64,000 nucleotides of DNA from an uncultured delta proteobacterium (GTDB taxonomy: Bacteria > Desulfobacterota > Binatia > Binatales > Binataceae). How positions within the stretch are numbered: position 1 is the stretch's first letter; every line of letters starts with the position of its first letter. This document shows, in pieces, positions 913 through 54,583 of this stretch. Location: positions 1,056,001 through 1,120,000 of the forward strand of contig CAVXXK010000001.1 in assembly GCA_963765675.1 (NCBI GenBank). Reading direction: 5' to 3'. Both the position numbers and the translations under genes were made by a program. The notes under the pieces were generated by a model. That model searched no databases and was not told where the DNA came from. It saw only the letters and a program-made list of their open reading frames with translations.

Positions 913-1034
913 GACGATCACCTTTCCATAACGAGGAACTCAACGCCGCGACTGAACCCACTCGATCAATTATATTGGTTCTCGGCCCGGCACTCATAGC
1001 GCAATATCTGTCCACGAAAGCGAGACTCTCGACG

Positions 1035-2289
1035 ATGCCAGAGATCGAAATCACCGCGATGACGCTTGGGCCCTATGGCGTTGGGCATCGAGATGGCAAG
1101 ACGGTGATGGTGCCCGGCGTGGCGCCGGGAGATCGGATCGAGGTCGCGATCCGGTCCGAGCGGCGCGACTACAACGTCGGTGCGATCGAGCGAATCATCG
1201 CGGCTGGCGCCGAGCGTCGCGCCACGCCATGTCCGTATCTGCCGCGCTGCGGAGGATGCGACTGGCAACAAATCGAGTATCCGGCGCAGGTACGGCTCAA
1301 GTCTGAGCTGATCGCGCAGGAGCTTGGCCGCGCGCTCGGAGTCGAGATCGATCCGGCAGGTTTGGTCGAGCCCGCGCCCGCCGAGTTCGGGTATCGCGCC
1401 CGGATTCGGCTTAAGGTCGGGCGTGGCGGCGCGCTCGGATTCCACGAGCTCGGCAGCAATGAACTGATCGCGATTGAGCATTGCCTCGTCGCGGAAGACA
1501 GCCTCGCGATGCCCTCGGTACTGGCGCGGGTGCTCGCGCGCGATCTGAGCGAGATCGAGGCGGTTGCGGCCGGCGGCAATCTCACGGTGCTGGTCGGATA
1601 TCTGAAGAAGCCGGCGGGAGCGGAACAGATCGAACGCGCGCGCCGAGCGCTTGAGGCTGACTCGAGGATCGCGGGAATCGTGCTGCGAGCGGGCGAGTCT
1701 CGCGTGATTTTGGGCGAGGTAGAGATCGAAGCGGAAATCGAGCCGGGCGTCGTGCTGCGCGCTGGCGCGGATTTGTTCAGCCAGGTGAATCGTGCGCAGA
1801 ACCTGCGGCTGGTCGCGGAGGTGATGGCGATGGCGTCGCCGGCGGCGGGCGCGAAGCTGCTCGATCTGTTTTGCGGCGCCGGAAATTTCAGCCTTCCAGC
1901 CGCGCGGCGCGGCGCACGCGTGACCGGGGTCGATTCGGATCCGCACGCGGTCGCGGCTGCCGCGCGCAACGCGGAGCGGATGAGACTTGGCGAGGCGCAA
2001 TTCGCCGCGATGCAGGCGCACGAGCTCGCGGCGTTCCTGCAGCGCGCGAGATTTCGGCCCGACGTCGTGATTCTCGATCCGCCGCGCACCGGAGCGGCCG
2101 CGCTGATCGAGCCGATCGCAAAGCTTGGCCCCGCGCGCGTTGTTTACGTTTCTTGCGACGCGGCAACTTTGGCGCGGGATTTGCGCGCGCTCGCGGCGCG
2201 TGGTTACAAATTATCGCGCGTGCGCGCATTCGATTTTTTTCCCGAACACGCATCATGCCGAGATCGCGGCGGAAGCGGTATTGACTTAA
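1035..2289 (+). CDS. rlmD: 23S rRNA (uracil-C5)-methyltransferase RlmD, with +1 indel near 2240
   Basis: TRAM-like N-terminus, CPYLPRCGGC Fe-S motif, LDLFCGAGNF, LDPPRTG, YVSCD. Removing one base at the T7/C3 run (2234-2243) restores the canonical DFFPNTHHAE...VLT* end at TAA 2289. Confidence 0.9.
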
Positions 2290-47297: not shown

Positions 47298-47424
47298 CGA
47301 TTCCTCGGCAACGGCATAAACCGCGTTGGCGACGGGGGTTACTGCCGAATCGTTGGGCGACTGCTGCTCATACGGGCGGCATCGGTGTATCTGGCGCTTT
47401 TGACGCCATTATCGGAGGCTCCTG

Positions 47425-48786
47425 ATGGCTCGCAGGGATGCGCTCGCGCGTAGTTCCGTCCTTTTCACAACCTTTCTCGTAATTGCCGCCGCGTCATTGT
47501 TCGTGATCGCAGGCGCGTCCTCGGCGCACGCAGCGATTCCGGGCGCGCCGAAGATCAACGGCGCCGATACCGCATGGGTTCTGCTCTCAGCGGTGCTGGT
47601 CCTGATGATGACGATTCCCGGCCTCGCGCTGTTTTACGGCGGGATGGTGCGGCGCAAAAACGTGCTCTCAACGCTGATGCAGAGCTTCATCCTTGCGGGG
47701 CTCGTGTCGATTCAGTGGGTGCTCTTCGGCTACAGCATCGCGTTTGCGCCCGGCAGCGGATTCGCCGGCGCGCTCTCGTGGGCCGGCCTTGCGGGCGTCA
47801 GCGCGACACAGCCGTACGCCGCATATTCCGCGACGATCCCGCATCAGGCCTACATGATCTATCAGTGCATGTTCGCGATTATCACCCCGGCGCTGATTAC
47901 CGGCGCGATCGCGGAGCGGATGACGTTCAGGGGATTCGTGATCTTCAGCCTGCTCTGGACGACGCTAATTTACGATCCGCTGGCGCATTGGGTGTGGGGC
48001 TCCGACGGATGGATCCACGCGATGGGCGCGCTGGATTTCGCGGGCGGCACGGTGGTGCACATCTCGTCGGGTGCTGCCGCGCTGGCCGGCGCGCTGCTGG
48101 TCGGCAAGCGGCGCGGGTATCTGAAGGAGCACATGGCGCCGCATAATCTGACGCTGACGATCACCGGCGCGGGCCTCTTGTGGGTCGGATGGTTCGGGTT
48201 CAACGCGGGCAGCTCGCTTGCGGCCGACGGCCTGGCGGTCTCGGCGTTCGTCGCGACGCATCTGGGCGCGGCGGCCGCGATGCTCTCGTGGGTTGCGGTG
48301 GAATGGTTCGTCGCAGGCAAGCCGACCACGCTCGGCGCGGCTTCGGGAGCGGTCGCGGGACTGGTCGCGATTACGCCCGCCTCGGGCTACGTGGGACCGA
48401 TGCCGGCGATAGTCATCGGAGTAGTCGCCGGAGGGCTATGCTTTGGCGCGGTGCGGATGAAATCGCTCTTCGGCTACGACGACGCGCTCGACGTGGTGGG
48501 CGTGCACATGATTGGCGGAATCTGGGGTGCGCTCGCGACCGGAATTTTCGCCAGCCTCGCAATCAATGCGGCCGGCGGCAACGGACTAATCGAGGGAAAT
48601 CCGCATCAGCTCCTGGTGCAGGCGATCGCGGTGGTCGCGAGCGTCGCGTTCTCATTCGTCGGCAGCGCGGTGCTGTTCAAGGTGACCGACGCGCTGGTCG
48701 GAATCCGCGTCGACGACGAAGGCCAGTACATGGGCCTCGACCTAAGCGAGCACGAGGAGAACGCCTACGCCTTCGTCGAGGGCTGA
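47425..48786 (+). CDS. amtB: ammonium transporter
   Basis: PGLALFYGG, DFAGGTVVH, GWFGFN, DD.LDV.GVH. Confidence 0.97.
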   Translation: MARRDALARSSVLFTTFLVIAAASLFVIAGASSAHAAIPGAPKINGADTAWVLLSAVLVLMMTIPGLALFYGGMVRRKNVLSTLMQSFILAGLVSIQWVLFGYSIAFAPGSGFAGALSWAGLAGVSATQPYAAYSATIPHQAYMIYQCMFAIITPALITGAIAERMTFRGFVIFSLLWTTLIYDPLAHWVWGSDGWIHAMGALDFAGGTVVHISSGAAALAGALLVGKRRGYLKEHMAPHNLTLTITGAGLLWVGWFGFNAGSSLAADGLAVSAFVATHLGAAAAMLSWVAVEWFVAGKPTTLGAASGAVAGLVAITPASGYVGPMPAIVIGVVAGGLCFGAVRMKSLFGYDDALDVVGVHMIGGIWGALATGIFASLAINAAGGNGLIEGNPHQLLVQAIAVVASVAFSFVGSAVLFKVTDALVGIRVDDEGQYMGLDLSEHEENAYAFVEG

Positions 48787-48912
48787 CAGCGGCCTTCCAC
48801 CGGCAAGCGCCGCATCCACGGGAAGCGCGGTCCCATCGGTATCTTGGTCTCCGTTTGTCGGGGTATCGGCACGGCCGTCCACAGGCTTATGTATTGCTAG
48901 GTCATAGGAGAG

Positions 48913-48941
48913 TTGGAATTTAAGGCCACTATAACTATAAT
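48913..48941 (+). promoter_or_regulatory. sigma70-type promoter of the three-gene insert
   Basis: TTGGAA-N17-TATAAT in AT-rich DNA, 95 bp before ATG 49036. Confidence 0.6.
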
Positions 48942-49035
48942 CTCTTAAGAATATGGACAACGCCGGGTATTGTGTTTAGCTTTGTTTCGAGGGGTTGATA
49001 CTCGGTTTTGACCTTTAAGGTAAACCGCTCAAAGT

Positions 49036-49839
49036 ATGAGAATTTCCTTTCTTCGCGCACCTTTGGTAGAGATTATCGCAGAATTGCGCTGGGAACCATC
49101 AATATCGCCTCTCCCTCAGGCCGGCCCGCAACCCCTTCCGGCTCTATATCTGGGGGCCAATCAGGTCGAGAACTTCCTACATCGGTTTGGCGGCGAGATC
49201 TACTCACAGGGTTTTGATCGCACGGAGCGGCTCCTTCCCAGCGGTGTTCCCGTGCCTCAAGGCCAAGTCATGGCGCGTTTCAAACGCAAGATGACAGATG
49301 ACGCCAACGTCCTCTATCAGGCTGGAATCGGCGTCTTTTCAGCAAATGCAACTCCTCCTTACCATTCTTGGGAAGCGTTCGCCCCGGTCGTCAAAGTGGG
49401 GGTGGAAGCGCTTTTGCGGTCGCGCGAAGATGAGGAAAAATCGACTAAGTTCAGCTCGGTTAGCTTAAGATATATCGATGCATTCGGGGCAGACTTGAGA
49501 GGCGGTCGCGAGCCTCTGGAATTCTTGACCAGCGTTCTTCAGATAAATGTTGGTCTTCCTAGGGTGGTGCTCGATCACTCGATAAAAGGGCAGCCACCAA
49601 AGCCCTTTGTGATGGCTGCGATTTCAGTGCCTGAGGGGGTACTTCGGATCAATGCTGGTGAGGCAACTGTCAGCGGTACAAATGCTGTATTGCTCGATAT
49701 GACGCTCTCGACGAAAGAACCAGTAGATCCTGTTTTAGAAGCTGTGATGGATTCACTGGAACGGGAGCATTCGATCATCCACGACATATTCATGGGGCTT
49801 ACTGAACCCATTCGGGAGTTGATGCTGCCGGCTCATTGA
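49036..49839 (+). CDS. TIGR04255-like protein
   Basis: APLVEIIAELRW, N..PPY.SWE.F, SLRYID.F, LLDM, H..I..IF pattern; 267 aa. Confidence 0.75.
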   Translation: MRISFLRAPLVEIIAELRWEPSISPLPQAGPQPLPALYLGANQVENFLHRFGGEIYSQGFDRTERLLPSGVPVPQGQVMARFKRKMTDDANVLYQAGIGVFSANATPPYHSWEAFAPVVKVGVEALLRSREDEEKSTKFSSVSLRYIDAFGADLRGGREPLEFLTSVLQINVGLPRVVLDHSIKGQPPKPFVMAAISVPEGVLRINAGEATVSGTNAVLLDMTLSTKEPVDPVLEAVMDSLEREHSIIHDIFMGLTEPIRELMLPAH

Positions 49840-49868
49840 AGACAGTTCAAAGAGGATAGTAGGAAGAG

Positions 49869-50420
49869 ATGAGTATCTGGTTACCTCCCCGCGACTTGGC
49901 GCTGATGGTTTCGGTCGATGTTTACGAGTCAATTGGTATCTCATCCGCCAATTATTTTCTGCAACCCCAGGTCGAGTATCGCGTTTCGGCGCATCATGAT
50001 TTCGAGTTCGAACGAGCGAAAGGCGAAATCAGAGAAATAGCAAAACTAGAATCGAACTGGGACGGTTACGGCGCTGCCCCAATTCAAAACCAGACGAAGC
50101 AAAATGCATTGGAGGCCGCCGATCTGATATTTGGCACAGCTCCAATTCCGGAAATCGCGCCGAATCCCAATGGGACGATCTCCATGGAGTGGGAGTCTGA
50201 GGCAGGCATAGCCCAGCTAGAAATTGGACTTTCGCGGTGGAGCTTTTTTATAGAACGGAAAGGCGGTGCGCCAATTTTGGAGGATGGACCAGCAAATCGG
50301 ATTCTACCGCAATTGGGGCTACTAGTTTCTGCGAATCTATTCCCCGCGTTACCTGCGACGACCACCTCTACGACCATTGAATCAAATGTGCAACCTGCCG
50401 ATCCACGTAGCGAACTCTGA
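49869..50420 (+). CDS. uncharacterised NWDGYGA-motif protein, putative antitoxin
   Basis: L..NWDGYGA.PI....A...P.I.P.PNG.I..EW...LEI; acidic; overlaps the next gene by 35 nt. Confidence 0.7.
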   Translation: MSIWLPPRDLALMVSVDVYESIGISSANYFLQPQVEYRVSAHHDFEFERAKGEIREIAKLESNWDGYGAAPIQNQTKQNALEAADLIFGTAPIPEIAPNPNGTISMEWESEAGIAQLEIGLSRWSFFIERKGGAPILEDGPANRILPQLGLLVSANLFPALPATTTSTTIESNVQPADPRSEL

Positions 50421-50846
50421 AAAAATCGTTCGGGCTATCATGAGCCCGTACCATGTCGACAGGAAGGGGAGGTTGAGACCCCGCGCGTTCCGGCCGGCAT
50501 CGGGTACAGACGAAGTTTCGGTTATTCGGCAATCTCACATGGGATCCGATTTCTGCAAGGACAAGGCGAAGGAAATCGCAGAACGCATTCCAGGAAAAAC
50601 ATATATTGGGTTGGCATCGGTCAGCGCCAACAGATTCGTAGCACGGGAGCCCAGATTGTTGATTCGCGAGCTGAGTTCTGCGGACACGCGCACATAAGCT
50701 ACGGAATCGTTGTTCAAAGGGACGAACCGCAGCAATCTGAACTCAATCGCCGATTAACGGAGTTTGCGCGCAAGATCCTTGACCTCGCGATCTTTCGCAT
50801 AGATCCCGACCCAAGCGCACCGACGTGGACTGGTGAAGCTCTCTGA
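50386..50846 (+). CDS. putative ART/RES-like toxin (~153 aa), 1-nt deletion at ~50629
   Basis: IVRAI...AF....EVSV.R...GLA.V, then in the shifted frame QIRSTGAQIVDSRAEFCGHAHISY...DPDPSAPTWTGEAL*. Confidence 0.6.
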
Positions 50847-50974
50847 TTTCGCACTTCTCTGTGGTCATATCTTCCTCATTCTGAAAGCCTGAAGGCTCAT
50901 CGACAGTCTGGAGCGCATTTTGCCTTCGCAAACCTCGCGTTGACTAACGGATCAATTCAAGTGCCGCGACTCCG

Positions 50975-51299
50975 CTAGAAACGACGCCCTATCGGATGTC
51001 CGCGGAGCGCGGTGAGGAGCGTGCAGGTGCCTTGCATCAGATGGCCGAGGCCGCCGGCTACTTGCGCGGTCGTGCGCCACGCCTGGTTGCTCTGATTGCG
51101 AGAGATGGTCTTCGAGATGCATTTTCTGTTGCGGTGTTAGCGAGTTGTATCCGCCTTCGTAGTAGAGCGGGGCGTAGTTCTGCGCGGCGGTCTGCGGATA
51201 CATCGCGGTGCATCCGGTTGCGCCGGTCAGAACCGCAAGAAAAAGCGCGAGCGCTACCGAGCGCGTCGCGCGGAATTCCAGGTTGCTGTCGGGCTTCAT
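50975..51299 (-). CDS. small lipoprotein paralog B (frameshift ~51098)
   Basis: ATGC lipobox; SLTPQQKMHLEDHLS then shifted NQSNQAWRTTAQVAGGLG.L.QGT matches its neighbour. Confidence 0.65.
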
Positions 51300-51330
51300 C
51301 GCGAGTACTCCGGCGATGAGCTGGATTAGT

Positions 51331-51669
51331 TCATCGCTTGACCGCCCACAGCAGGACGCCCGTTCCCTGGGTCAGCGTACCGAGGCCGCCGGCGACCGAT
51401 GCGGTCGTGCGCCACGCGGCGTTGCTCTCGTTGGAGAGATGGTCCTCTAGCTGCATCTTCTGCTCGGGCGAGAGCGAGCTGTACTGCTGGCCGTTGTAAT
51501 AGCTCGGCGTGGCCTGCTCCGCCGCGCCCTGCGGATTGAACGCGGCGCATCCGCCGAACGACAGGATCGCGGCGACGCCGATCAGAAAAACCAGCACGGC
51601 GGGCCATCGCATCTGGATCCGGTCCACCCCCGGTGCGGTTGAGAATCGAGGCTCATCGATGCTGGCCAT
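51331..51669 (-). CDS. small lipoprotein paralog A
   Basis: FGGC lipobox; SLSPEQKMQLEDHLSNESNAAWRTTASVAGGLGTLTQGTGVLLW. Confidence 0.72.
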   Translation of the reverse strand: MASIDEPRFSTAPGVDRIQMRWPAVLVFLIGVAAILSFGGCAAFNPQGAAEQATPSYYNGQQYSSLSPEQKMQLEDHLSNESNAAWRTTASVAGGLGTLTQGTGVLLWAVKR

Positions 51670-51935
51670 TGTGGTACCGCTCCTCAGCGGAAACTCAGCT
51701 TCCGCGGTTTCTCAGAGCGACGATCGTGCCATCGAGCCGCGGCGCGGCGAGCATCGTGGATGCTGCTGATTCTGGCGTGCGGATTAACACCTCGTCAGGA
51801 TTGAGGCACGCGCGCCGTGGCCCGATTTGCGAGATCGTCACGACCCTTTGACGCAATCGTGCACGCGCCCGTTTCAAGCAAAATGATGACAGTACGTTAA
51901 GGCGCGGCGCGGTTACGCGCCTGCACAGATGCCGA

Positions 51936-52184
51936 TTAGCGCTGCATCGCCTGGAAGATGAATGGCCCGGCTTCGGCCATCACCTCGCCGACGATTTCGG
52001 ACAGCGGCTTGGACGGGATCGCTAGCTTCTCGGTCAGGTTGGTCATCACGGTCAGATAACGCTGCTTCATCTCGGGGCTGATGGTTTCGAGTCGGACTGA
52101 TTCCATCACCTCGACGAAGCGCCGATGAACCTCGACGATTGCTATATCGGCGGGATCAGTGAACTTCTTCGACGAACGCGCCAT
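51936..52184 (-). CDS. small hypothetical protein
   Basis: 82 aa, helical, host-like codons, GAGGG SD. Confidence 0.7.
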   Translation of the reverse strand: MARSSKKFTDPADIAIVEVHRRFVEVMESVRLETISPEMKQRYLTVMTNLTEKLAIPSKPLSEIVGEVMAEAGPFIFQAMQR

Positions 52185-52275
52185 AACGCTACCCTCGCGC
52201 AGAGAAATCGGGCTGAGACTTGATCATATCACGCGCGCTGTCCCTTCGATGCGATGCCAGCGGAGCCGGAGATCA

Positions 52276-54583
52276 CTATGACGCAGCGCGGGCCGGCTCC
52301 GGTTGAACGTCTATCGACAGAGCCGGACCTCTTCGGAGATTCGCGTAGGTTTTGAGCGCGGCGATCACGAGTGGAGCGACGCCCAGCACGATGAAGATCA
52401 GATCGCCCGGCAGCCGCGCCCATTCGAGCGAGTGCATCAGGGTGCTGTGCCCGAACGCTTCGCTGCGCGCGTGCCAATATCCGTTCTGCAGCACGTCATA
52501 GAGTTGCAGCACGCCGCCGGGGAATAGATTGGTCACGATCATCAGCACCAGTCCCAAGTTGAGTCCGAAGAACGAAACCCGGATATATTTTTCCGTGTCG
52601 CGCCATTGCTCGTCGGAAGAGACCTGCCGAAAGGCAAAAACCATCAGCGCGACCGCGAGCATCCCGAACACGCCCATAAACGCGGCGTGCGCGTGATTTG
52701 GCGTGAGCATGGTGCCGACCTCGAAGTAGCTGACGATCGGCATGTTGATGAGGAAGCCGAAGACGCCGGCGCCGACGAAATTCCACACTCCGACCGCCAT
52801 CAGGAAGTAAAACGTCCATCGATGCGGCACCGAAATTTCCTCGCCGCAGGTATCGCATCGCCCCTGGGTCAGTGCGATAAAATCCCACGCGTCGAGCGTC
52901 AGCAGCGTCAGCGGGACGACCTCCATCGCGGAGAAAACCGAGCTCAGCGCCATCGCGATCTGTCCCTGACCGGTGAAGTACCAATGATGCCCGGTGCCGA
53001 TGATCCCGGCGCCGAGATAGAGGAGAGCGTCGAGATAGACGACACGCGAGGCGGTCGTGCTCGAGACGATTCCGAGCTGGTAGAAAATGATCGCAACGGC
53101 GCAGGTGACGAATAGCTCGAGAAAGTTCTCGACCCACAGATGGATTATCCAGAATCGCCAGAGATCGACGATCGTGAAGTTGGTCGCGGTGTTGTAGAAG
53201 AACGCGGGCACGTAAAACACCGGAATCGTGACGGCGGCCGCGATAAAAAGCCACGAAAGTTCGCTCGATTCGTGGCCGCTCAGCCGCGGCGCGATCGCGC
53301 GGTAGAGCAGCACCACCCACAGGACCAGGCCTGCCGCGAGCATCATCTGCCACGCGCGTCCGAGGTCCAGGTATTCCCATCCCTGATCGCCGAACCAGCT
53401 CCAGAACCTGCCGAACCACTGATGCACTCCGGCGAATTCGCCGAGCAGGCTCCCGACGACGACCAGCACCAGCGCGGCGAACAGGACATTCACCCACAAA
53501 GCTTGTGCGCGCGGCTCGGCGCCGCCGATGACGGGAGCCAGGAACAGTCCGCCGGCGACGTAGGACGCCGCGATCCAGAAAATCGCGAGTTGCAGATGCC
53601 AGGTGCGCAGAATTTGACTGGGCAAAATCGCCGAGAGATTGATTCCATAGAAGCTGCCCGAGTTCGCGCGGTAGTGCGCAGTGCCGCCGCCGACCAGCGC
53701 CTGAGCAAGGAACAGCAGCGCGATCAGCGCGAAATATTTGATCGTCGCCCGCTGGCTCGGCGTCGTCACGCCGGGGAGCATCCTCGGATGCACATGCCCG
53801 CGTTGCCGCCGCCATCCGAGGAAATCGAAGCGGCCGAATGCGAACAGCACCGCCGCGGTAGCACCGAGCAGCGTGATCACGCTGAGCGCGCTCCATAGCA
53901 CCGCGCCGCTGGTCGGCAGATTGCCGGCCGAAGGATCATAAGGAAAGTTGCTGGTGTACGAGTAATTCAATCCGGGCCGATTCGCGACCGAAGCCCACGC
54001 CGCCCATGCGAAAAACGAGGTCAGCTCGCGCAGTTGCGTCGGGTCGTTGATATAATCGCGCGGAAGGCCGGCGTCCTGCGATGGATTCGTGAAGTAAGCG
54101 GTCCATAGAGCGATCTGATGCTGGTAAGAGGCGGCCTCCGCTTCGGTGAATGTCAGAGTTTTGGTGACGGGATCGTAGCGGTTGCGCTTGAGCATCCGTG
54201 TGACTTCAGCGTTGACGACAAGGCGCTGGCGCGGCGCAAGCTGCGCCGGCATCACGAAGCCGTGACGCTCGGTGATACTCTTTTCAGTGTCGATTGCGAG
54301 CGTGTGCAGGTACTGGGCGGAAAAGTCGGGACCCAGGTATGCGCCGTGTCCCCAGATGGTGCCGTTCTCCATCAATCCGTAGCGCAGAAAGACCTGTTGA
54401 CCGGCAGTGACATCGGCGGCGGTGAACAACACGGCACCGTCCGGACTGACGACGCGTTCAGGAATCGGCGGCGCGTCGGTGTAGGTCAGCTTCGCGAGCC
54501 ATCCGAGCACGCAGAAACACACGACGATCGTGGCGATCGCAGCAGCGTCGCCACCAAGGTGAGAGGGCTTGATCCTCGGGCAT
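52276..54583 (-). CDS. norZ: quinol-dependent nitric oxide reductase (qNOR), indel near 54544
   Basis: GTIWGHGAYLGPDF, HLWVE..LE, GTGHH, NHAH, R.PGD. Probable true start MPEDQALSPWWRR at 54583 behind AAGGAG is out of frame by one base. Confidence 0.92.

Follow-up and report, generated by a model that had tools for sequence, protein, structure and literature searches.

Among the described systems closest to the three-gene operon considered here, CmdTAC is presented as an ADP-ribosyltransferase (ART) toxin encoded together with an antitoxin and a SecB-like chaperone (PMC11618068), and the PDC systems are presented as untested candidates found by guilt-by-embedding (bioRxiv 10.1101/2024.01.29.577857), one of them, PDC-M32, being listed in Sinorhizobium prophages (PMC12429752). 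The operon lies in a window of 64,000 nucleotides (nt), by which the whole stretch of DNA analysed is meant (contig CAVXXK010000001.1 of assembly GCA_963765675.1, positions 1,056,001 to 1,120,000), from an uncultured delta proteobacterium of the Binataceae. It is carried by an insert that we regard, with a probability of about 60%, as a mobile three-gene toxin-antitoxin-type module with a putative toxin of ART fold. Its parts, in window coordinates and with lengths in amino acids (aa), are the following.

48787-50993 (approximate), no strand: insert, horizontally acquired, between the amtB stop codon and the downstream minus-strand gene
48913-48941, plus strand: promoter-like site TTGGAA-N17-TATAAT, agreeing with the consensus at 10 of 12 positions, about 95 nt upstream of gene 1
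49036-49839, plus strand: gene 1, TIGR04255 family protein, 267 aa, the operon's conserved first gene
49869-50420, plus strand: gene 2, protein with the NWDGYGA motif, 183 aa, putative antitoxin
50386-50628, plus strand: 5' part of gene 3, codons 1-81, putative ART-like toxin, identical to residues 1-81 of the database protein P0001
50629-50846, plus strand: 3' part of gene 3 (the rest of codon 82, codons 83-153 and the stop), in a frame one base back

A preliminary description of this DNA had noted three tightly packed genes behind their own promoter, and the coordinates confirm the packing, with a gap of 29 nt between genes 1 and 2 and with the ATG of gene 3 at 50386 overlapping gene 2 by 35 nt. 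The promoter sequence is likewise present as described, as a consensus match only; it is the sole sigma-70-like site within 48600-51200, and since shuffled sequence yields 1.5 +/- 1.2 such sites, it is plausible rather than significant on its own. The first frame of gene 3 ends early, at 50697, and the second frame is open to the stop at 50844-50846. P0001, which is 153 aa long, is identical in residues 1-81 to the first frame and in residues 83-153 to the translation from 50631; from this exact agreement with both frames it follows that codon 82, near 50628/50629, lacks one base. The same identity bears out the earlier statement that gene 3 is masked by a 1-nt deletion and measures about 153 aa when repaired. 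The missing base may be a true mutation or an assembly error, and this copy of gene 3 may be inactive if the loss is real; the public reads, from a single DNA run with 7% of the sampled words, gave contigs that cover 48700-48784 and 50274-50445, the frameshift site lying outside them, and no RNA run was listed as containing this DNA.

The ART fold of gene 3 comes from a predicted structure. An AlphaFold2 model of the intact twin P0001, made from an 8-row alignment, reached a predicted local distance difference test (pLDDT) score of 94.3. When it was compared with 48,161 chains by an aligner independent of Foldseek, ART-superfamily proteins took nearly all of the top rows (KptA, Z 7.0; AvrPphF ORF2, 6.7; Tse2, 6.7; Tpt1, 6.5; Scabin, 5.2), and TreX, PltA, DarT, heat-labile enterotoxin, CC0527, RES toxins, Arr, ParT and MbcT occupied lower ones. 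In a second-look alignment all 21 rows with Z of at least 4.1 were of the ART superfamily and the next row stood at Z 2.9, and it is mainly because of this gap that the fold is accepted. The best of these rows was the NAD+ lobe of KptA/Tpt1 (Z 8.5, root mean square deviation 2.5 Å over 93 residues, 12% identity), the other families including AvrPphF ORF2, CC0527, TreTu, PltA, Arr and RES toxins. According to the model, gene 3 thus has a fold of the ADP-ribosyltransferase superfamily, which agrees with its earlier characterization as ART/RES-like, the resemblance to RES being one of fold (Z 4.3-4.5). The structural check suggested at that time, by AlphaFold and Foldseek, gave the fold through the second aligner, while Foldseek alone was weak and returned no match at E <= 0.001 in the Protein Data Bank or among viral models.

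By sequence, gene 3 belongs to a large family without a name. Nine relatives share words with it, and an exhaustive profile search recovered 611 clusters at 50% identity (E <= 0.001), of which 410 at E <= 1e-10. None of 35 members scanned had a Pfam match above the curated cut-off or a Pfam RES hit at E <= 1, and a sequence search against solved structures gave nothing meaningful. The pattern R...F...SV.R...G...D...HAHI, pointed out previously in the window, is present and is conserved among the relatives: over 140 sequences (P0001, 132 of the 150 listed representatives, 135-230 aa long, and seven distant third genes) conservation amounts to 92% for E12, 96% for R16, 98% for S45, 100% for R48, 98% for G75 and 99% for H101. 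ARTs place R on strand 1 and S on strand 2, and their catalytic triads, R-S-E or H-Y-E, are spread over strands 1, 2 and 5; in the P0001 model R16 is on strand 1, S45 on strand 2 and H101 on strand 5.

In comparison with known toxin-antitoxin systems of this superfamily, RES-Xre (MbcT and the P. putida RES toxin), ParT-ParS and DarT-DarG have the fold in common with gene 3 (Z 3.4-4.9) and consist of a small toxin with a neutralising neighbour protein, as proposed for genes 3 and 2. Unlike them, gene 3 has no sequence-level match to the RES, ParT or DarT families of Pfam, and gene 2 is neither an Xre/DUF2384 protein nor a macrodomain, as the antitoxins of RES-Xre and DarT-DarG are. The motifs of ART-fold toxins are known as R-E-S, R-S-E and H-Y-E, and the conserved set of gene 3, R-S-R-H, differs from all three. 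The likeness to toxin-antitoxin-chaperone systems such as CmdTAC lies in the three genes, with an ART-type toxin, an antitoxin and a possible controller of the antitoxin, functions which we infer for the trio, and in carriage on mobile DNA, which applies to both. In contrast to CmdTAC, gene 1 is a TIGR04255 protein and not SecB-like, the order is accessory-antitoxin-toxin, and gene 3 shows no sequence similarity to the ART families of Pfam in the 35 members.

Gene 2 matches no Pfam or NCBIfam family. Its predicted model contains a confident core (residues 40-163) with disordered tails (1-39 and 164-183), and the core aligns with the solved structures of Mediator Med17C (Z 7.3), the MotA C-terminal domain (6.8), frataxins and the TriTu immunity protein (Z 5.8, 76 residues); no Foldseek match was found at E <= 0.001, and sequence searches against solved structures gave nothing meaningful. 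A complex of gene 2 residues 40-165 with gene 3, predicted from 35-row alignments drawn from the same loci, scored 0.84 in each of three runs, the best control scoring 0.01, so that the pairing of the two proteins, for which modelling had been recommended, is indeed predicted. Of 157 solved complexes 116 attained this score, as did 2 of 215 mismatched pairs; the counts apply only roughly here, since the alignments for the present pair were made for this analysis. At least 96% of the contacts agree among the runs, and partner pLDDT is at least 90. On the side of gene 2 the predicted interface is built from the invariant NWDGYGA (63-70) and PNPNGT (97-103) motifs, and on the side of gene 3 from residues 36-40, S45 and the loop 110-119, but not from R16, R48 or H101. 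The prediction supports the binding of gene 2 to gene 3.

The co-occurrence of the three families was followed through pattern scans for gene 3, which yielded 11 loci in species-representative genomes and 61 in metagenomes, with 60 distinct gene 3 sequences. Gene 2 is present in 55 of the 60 loci having at least 600 nt upstream, and where at least 1500 nt were available (47 loci), gene 2 was found in 44 and gene 1 in 43, always in the same order and on the same strand, which answers the co-occurrence check proposed earlier with all three families in fixed order at 43 of 47 loci. Exceptions are one sequence in L012, L071 and L073, which matches residues 58-108 only (the same sequence in L072 has too little upstream DNA to count), the partial matches L066 and L069, and L011, where gene 2 is present but phmmer detects no gene 1. 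According to the labels of metagenome-assembled genomes, the hosts of the trio belong to Betaproteobacteria, Alphaproteobacteria, Actinomycetota, Acidobacteriota, Limnocylindrales and Cytophagales.

Gene 1 is a full-length member of TIGR04255, as the preliminary description had proposed to check by a profile search: it scores 70.4 bits against the NCBIfam model (cut-off 30), with E 2.1e-19 over profile positions 4-251 of 252, a six-frame search of the genome gave the same result, and its homologues carry the source name 'TIGR04255 family protein'. No Pfam family, SecB-like ones included, matched gene 1 at E <= 1, a sequence search against solved structures gave nothing meaningful, the ESM Atlas held no model of gene 1 or of P0228, and no mention of TIGR04255 was found in the literature searched. 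The family is present in 43 of 401 sampled genomes of the phylum. In a survey of DNA downstream of TIGR04255 genes (30 loci listed, 29 with room downstream), an open reading frame (ORF) follows directly on the same strand in 29 of 29 loci, within 35 nt in 25, and a second one in 26 of 29, counts that come without a chance control and may include spurious ORFs in GC-rich DNA. Genes resembling genes 2 and 3 by hidden Markov model (HMM) follow in five of the 30 loci. Elsewhere the third gene is of PemK/MazF (L103, L122), PIN (L110, L114) or HEPN (L108) type, weakly HicA-like and below the cut-off (L120), or DUF7689 (L095, L102), the gene assigned in L114 and L122 being the first detectable ORF downstream rather than the third gene. 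Because PIN, MazF, HEPN and other such proteins fill the third position elsewhere, gene 3 is taken to occupy the toxin slot and gene 2 the antitoxin slot, and TIGR04255, judged from these arrangements, looks like a conserved accessory common to swappable antitoxin-toxin pairs. The third position in operons led by TIGR04255 also suggests that DUF7689 is a toxin domain.

Several further observations were made on these operons. The DUF7689 proteins are encoded at L095:2630-3097 and L102:593-1033. The last gene after TIGR04255 in L099, L100, L119, L121, L123 and L124 belongs to an unnamed family whose proteins are about 190-270 aa long, share a conserved [ST]-[QN]-[STD]-C-D motif and have no Pfam match. 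In L097 and L101 the second gene encodes a protein of about 210 aa with an Xre-type helix-turn-helix (HTH_31 at E 5.5e-4, which misses the cut-off), reminiscent of the antitoxins of RES toxins, and no third gene was resolved there.

In regard to defence catalogues, the preliminary description had put the trio forward as a candidate undescribed system, and this stands in so far as no named, tested system matches, but not for the PADLOC candidate PDC-M32, whose A model is matched in part and whose B model is matched weakly. Of 35 family members, 23 match positions 261-331 of PDC-M32A (375 positions) with the gene 2 core (best E 1.2e-8), gene 2 of the window itself matching the C-terminal part at E 7e-7, and 7 weakly match PDC-M32B (123-131 positions) with gene 3 (best E 9e-4; P0001, 1.3e-3). 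Profile alignment by hhalign of the third gene of L087, a PDC-M32-like locus, with gene 3 brings E12-x3-R16, AF[RK] and S45-x2-R48 into register, and the H-A-x-I motifs line up by eye. Unlike PDC-M32A, gene 2 lacks the N-terminal domain of 255 residues, and unlike PDC-M32, the trio includes TIGR04255 as a gene of its own, to which no PDC-M32 model corresponds; the only match of the gene 1 family in PADLOC was a marginal one to a type I specificity subunit (E 0.046, in 1 of 35 members). On these comparisons of sequence, genes 2 and 3 are distant relatives of the candidate PDC-M32. PDC-M32A was matched in 13 of 401 genomes of the phylum, in four by its N-terminal domain only and in most others by the C-terminal part only; in G348 a PDC-M32B-like gene directly follows a gene for the C-terminal domain of PDC-M32A, and L089, L091 and L092 hold similar small PDC-M32-like modules. 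The proteins upstream in L087 and L092 were considered as relatives of gene 1 and showed no relation to it by profile comparison. L083 was likewise set aside as a case of the same module, being a type I restriction locus where a protein like the N-terminal domain of PDC-M32A stands beside a PIN-like gene: at L083:1339-2262 (minus strand) a 307-aa protein matches the N-terminal domain only, it is followed at 917-1342 (minus strand) by a 141-aa protein that is PIN-like by eye, and an adjoining long ORF resembles, by eye, a type I restriction specificity subunit. Since the L083 protein matches that domain alone, the PDC-M32A model unites two domains that are also met with separately.

Of the alternatives, the one that survives best holds that an ordinary toxin-antitoxin pair is formed by genes 2 and 3 alone, with gene 1 acting as a transcriptional regulator or being carried along as a passenger, and we consider it unlikely. 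It would agree with a predicted binding that concerns genes 2 and 3 only, with the PDC-M32-like loci L087, L089 and L091, where no TIGR04255 gene is detectable, and with a gene 1 that has no chaperone-like family match. As a passenger, however, gene 1 would hardly be retained, as it is, in 43 of 44 loci where gene 2 is present and the upstream DNA is long enough, and a functional link of TIGR04255 to antitoxin-toxin pairs is suggested because it heads tight operons with varied third genes, of at least five kinds other than the one found here; as for a regulator, neither a helix-turn-helix nor another DNA-binding family was found in gene 1 with Pfam and NCBIfam.

According to the proposed mechanism of the three-gene module, gene 3 would be a small stand-alone enzyme, toxic to its host, which probably acts with NAD+ on some essential component of the cell, either modifying or depleting it, nucleic-acid ends being the leading guess because the nearest structural neighbour is the NAD+ lobe of KptA/Tpt1. 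Gene 2 would be translated just before gene 3, from an overlapping frame, and its product would grip that of gene 3 through the NWDGYGA and PNPNGT motifs, covering part of the presumed active cleft; for this reason it is proposed as the antitoxin. Gene 1 would be an accessory which, by analogy, most likely controls the stability of the antitoxin or senses a trigger such as phage infection, a role modelled on the chaperone of toxin-antitoxin-chaperone systems, and the module as a whole might then serve in defence.

The mobility of the module is seen first in the window itself. An AT-richer insert of about 2 kb among host-like genes, as had been reported, is apparent both from GC content (0.50-0.54 over 48800-50999 against 0.58-0.71 in the flanks) and from an empty site in genomes of the same genus. 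When 47400-52300 was compared with 40 relatives, both flanks were found on one contig, 23-31 nt apart, in three same-genus genomes (G009, G005 and G006), the distance from the amtB stop to the downstream gene being 31 nt in G009 and 26 nt in G005, and the inner 2.2 kb had no match in any of the 40. Because the flanks are nearly adjacent there and the inner part is unmatched, the inserted DNA is placed at about 48787-50993. A further genome, G010, has the same arrangement; it is flagged as unpublished and is not used as a basis for the insert. No integrase, tRNA or Rfam match was found in the insert (ORF list, and Rfam and tRNA scans that included the flanks). The insert is bracketed by one further feature, which, from its sequence, may be a decayed target duplication or a product of chance.

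48819-48831 (left copy) and 51001-51013 (right copy), plus strand: 13-nt imperfect direct repeat, 85% alike

Related operons are also carried by prophages and viral contigs. In a Pantoea megaplasmid prophage, a TIGR04255 gene (E 1e-66 to the gene 1 profile) lies between the lysis genes and the small terminase, followed by two small genes with the same motifs, recognized by eye only and undetected by the HMMs of genes 2 and 3; the genes neighbouring this trio have no relatives in the 11 viral loci. These are 11 viral contigs with relatives of gene 1, all of which have a following ORF, gene-2-like by HMM in 10, with a further ORF in 10, gene-3-like by HMM in 5. A pattern scan of viral contigs for gene 3 had found none, and it was evidently too strict, because the later scan for gene 1 found viral contigs with gene-3-like ORFs; a search for gene 1 in the phage collection gave no match. 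At L132:4677-8000 the trio adjoins a tyrosine integrase in a Pseudomonas-type prophage, and related Pseudomonas phages share the flanking DNA to its left and right while the trio is left unmatched, so that the site of the trio may be a variable cargo spot. A Doc-family toxin is annotated in phage Sirocco within the stretch that matches the flanks of the L132 trio.

The genes around the trio were scanned in 26 distinct loci, giving 127 flanking ORFs, after duplicates (L001, L016, L019, L020, L030, L045, L046, L055, L058, L059, L064 and L071-L073) and L068, a copy of L067, had been left out. PADLOC matches among them include AbiE, Septu and two type II restriction-modification systems, all adjacent, and the Pfam families comprise integrases, a resolvase, a Panacea-domain protein and a phage portal.

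It is also conceivable that gene 3 is a NAD+-dependent enzyme that modifies or repairs nucleic-acid ends and not a toxin, with gene 2 as a substrate-binding or regulatory partner, an explanation we regard as improbable. Its best argument is that the top structural matches are the NAD+ lobes of Tpt1/KptA (Z 6.2-8.5). Tpt1, however, is described as an N-terminal winged-helix RNA lobe joined to a NAD+ lobe, with three of the four residues of its Arg-His-Arg-Arg tetrad in the RNA lobe (PMC6333775), while gene 3 aligns only to chain residues 84-183, approximately, which form the NAD+ lobe, and lacks the winged-helix RNA lobe that bears those three residues; neither the tetrad nor the HGT motif, as far as they are given in that source, was identified in gene 3, and there was no Pfam hit. 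As it aligns to the NAD+ lobe alone, gene 3 is ruled out as a Tpt1. Furthermore, the context is toxin-antitoxin-like and not that of RNA processing, the same operon position being held elsewhere by PIN, MazF and HEPN toxins, and the module turns up sporadically as a mobile insert, in prophages and beside defence systems.

Finally, that genes 3 and 2 form an interbacterial effector-immunity pair, a polymorphic toxin domain with its immunity protein, is highly improbable, since in spite of the ART-fold Rhs and type VI secretion system toxins among the structural matches (TreX, TreTu, Tse2, Tne2) and the middling match of gene 2 to the TriTu immunity protein, gene 3 stands alone at 153 aa with no long N-terminal delivery domain among the 150 relatives listed (92-229 aa), no secretion-system family was found by Pfam in the 127 neighbouring ORFs, and both the antitoxin-first order and the TIGR04255 operons with classic intracellular toxins favour a toxin-antitoxin module.

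Several points nevertheless weigh against the three-gene toxin-antitoxin module as proposed. The toxin gene is frameshifted in the window and in one other distinct copy (L015 and L016, which are one sequence), and tblastn found no match to gene 3 in 50,697 phage or 72,556 plasmid records. Both the structure of gene 3 and its complex with gene 2 are predictions, and Foldseek alone gave a weak result for gene 3, with KptA/Tpt1 as the best match at E 0.17. The catalytic glutamate usual in R-S-E and H-Y-E ARTs is not conserved, and the conserved residues named above were compared with those of ARTs by strand only. Because strand 5 bears H101 instead of a glutamate, the chemistry of gene 3, judged from the model, may differ from that of the usual ARTs or be absent. 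E114, for its part, is a loop residue, and only among close family members is it nearly invariant. To our knowledge, Tse2 and AvrPphF ORF2, which share the fold, have no proven ART activity. Likewise, the modelled core of gene 2 is a common small alpha+beta sandwich arrangement that says little on function, gene 1 has no enzymatic or DNA-binding motif detectable in Pfam and NCBIfam scans, so that its role is proposed by analogy, and the 17 of 127 neighbouring ORFs with PADLOC matches (E <= 1e-8), in 11 of 26 loci, were counted without a background control. In regard to the frameshift, gene 3 of L015/L016 is split into two ORFs, and frameshifted toxin genes thus recur in the gene 3 family.

Taken jointly, the observations allow a wider reading, which is put forward tentatively and has, in our view, somewhat less than an even chance of being correct. 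According to it, many tripartite toxin-antitoxin or defence cassettes would have in common a third component that had gone unrecognised, TIGR04255, acting as a sensor or a chaperone-like controller of the antitoxin. Such cassettes would be spread by prophages and combined with at least six unrelated types of third gene, presumed to be toxins (a new R-S-R-H clade of ART fold, PIN, MazF, HEPN, HicA-like and DUF7689), and enzymes of the ART-like clade would act with NAD+, a histidine replacing the usual glutamate, possibly tagging nucleic-acid ends. As regards what is known and what is new, the two small genes are distantly akin to an untested candidate, PDC-M32, and the first gene has no described role. 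The orphan family TIGR04255 gains a testable setting, with a constant place at the head of three-gene operons whose antitoxin-toxin pairs are swappable, and the gene 3 family, with its 611 clusters and unusual conserved residues, is a sizeable unnamed branch of the ART superfamily. If gene 1 is truly a sensor or chaperone, the control logic of toxin-antitoxin-chaperone defence systems would have been arrived at a second time by unrelated means. DUF7689 together with several unnamed families would also be marked as likely toxins.

To the right of the insert, two small ORFs stand in tandem on the minus strand, one at 50952-51299 (115 aa) and the other at 51331-51669 (112 aa). Both contain the motif YY.G..Y.SL.P.QKM.LEDHLS after a signal- or lipoprotein-like start and, from this resemblance, are probably paralogues. 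The segment 51044-51128, inside the first of them, also matches a second place in the loci of relatives.

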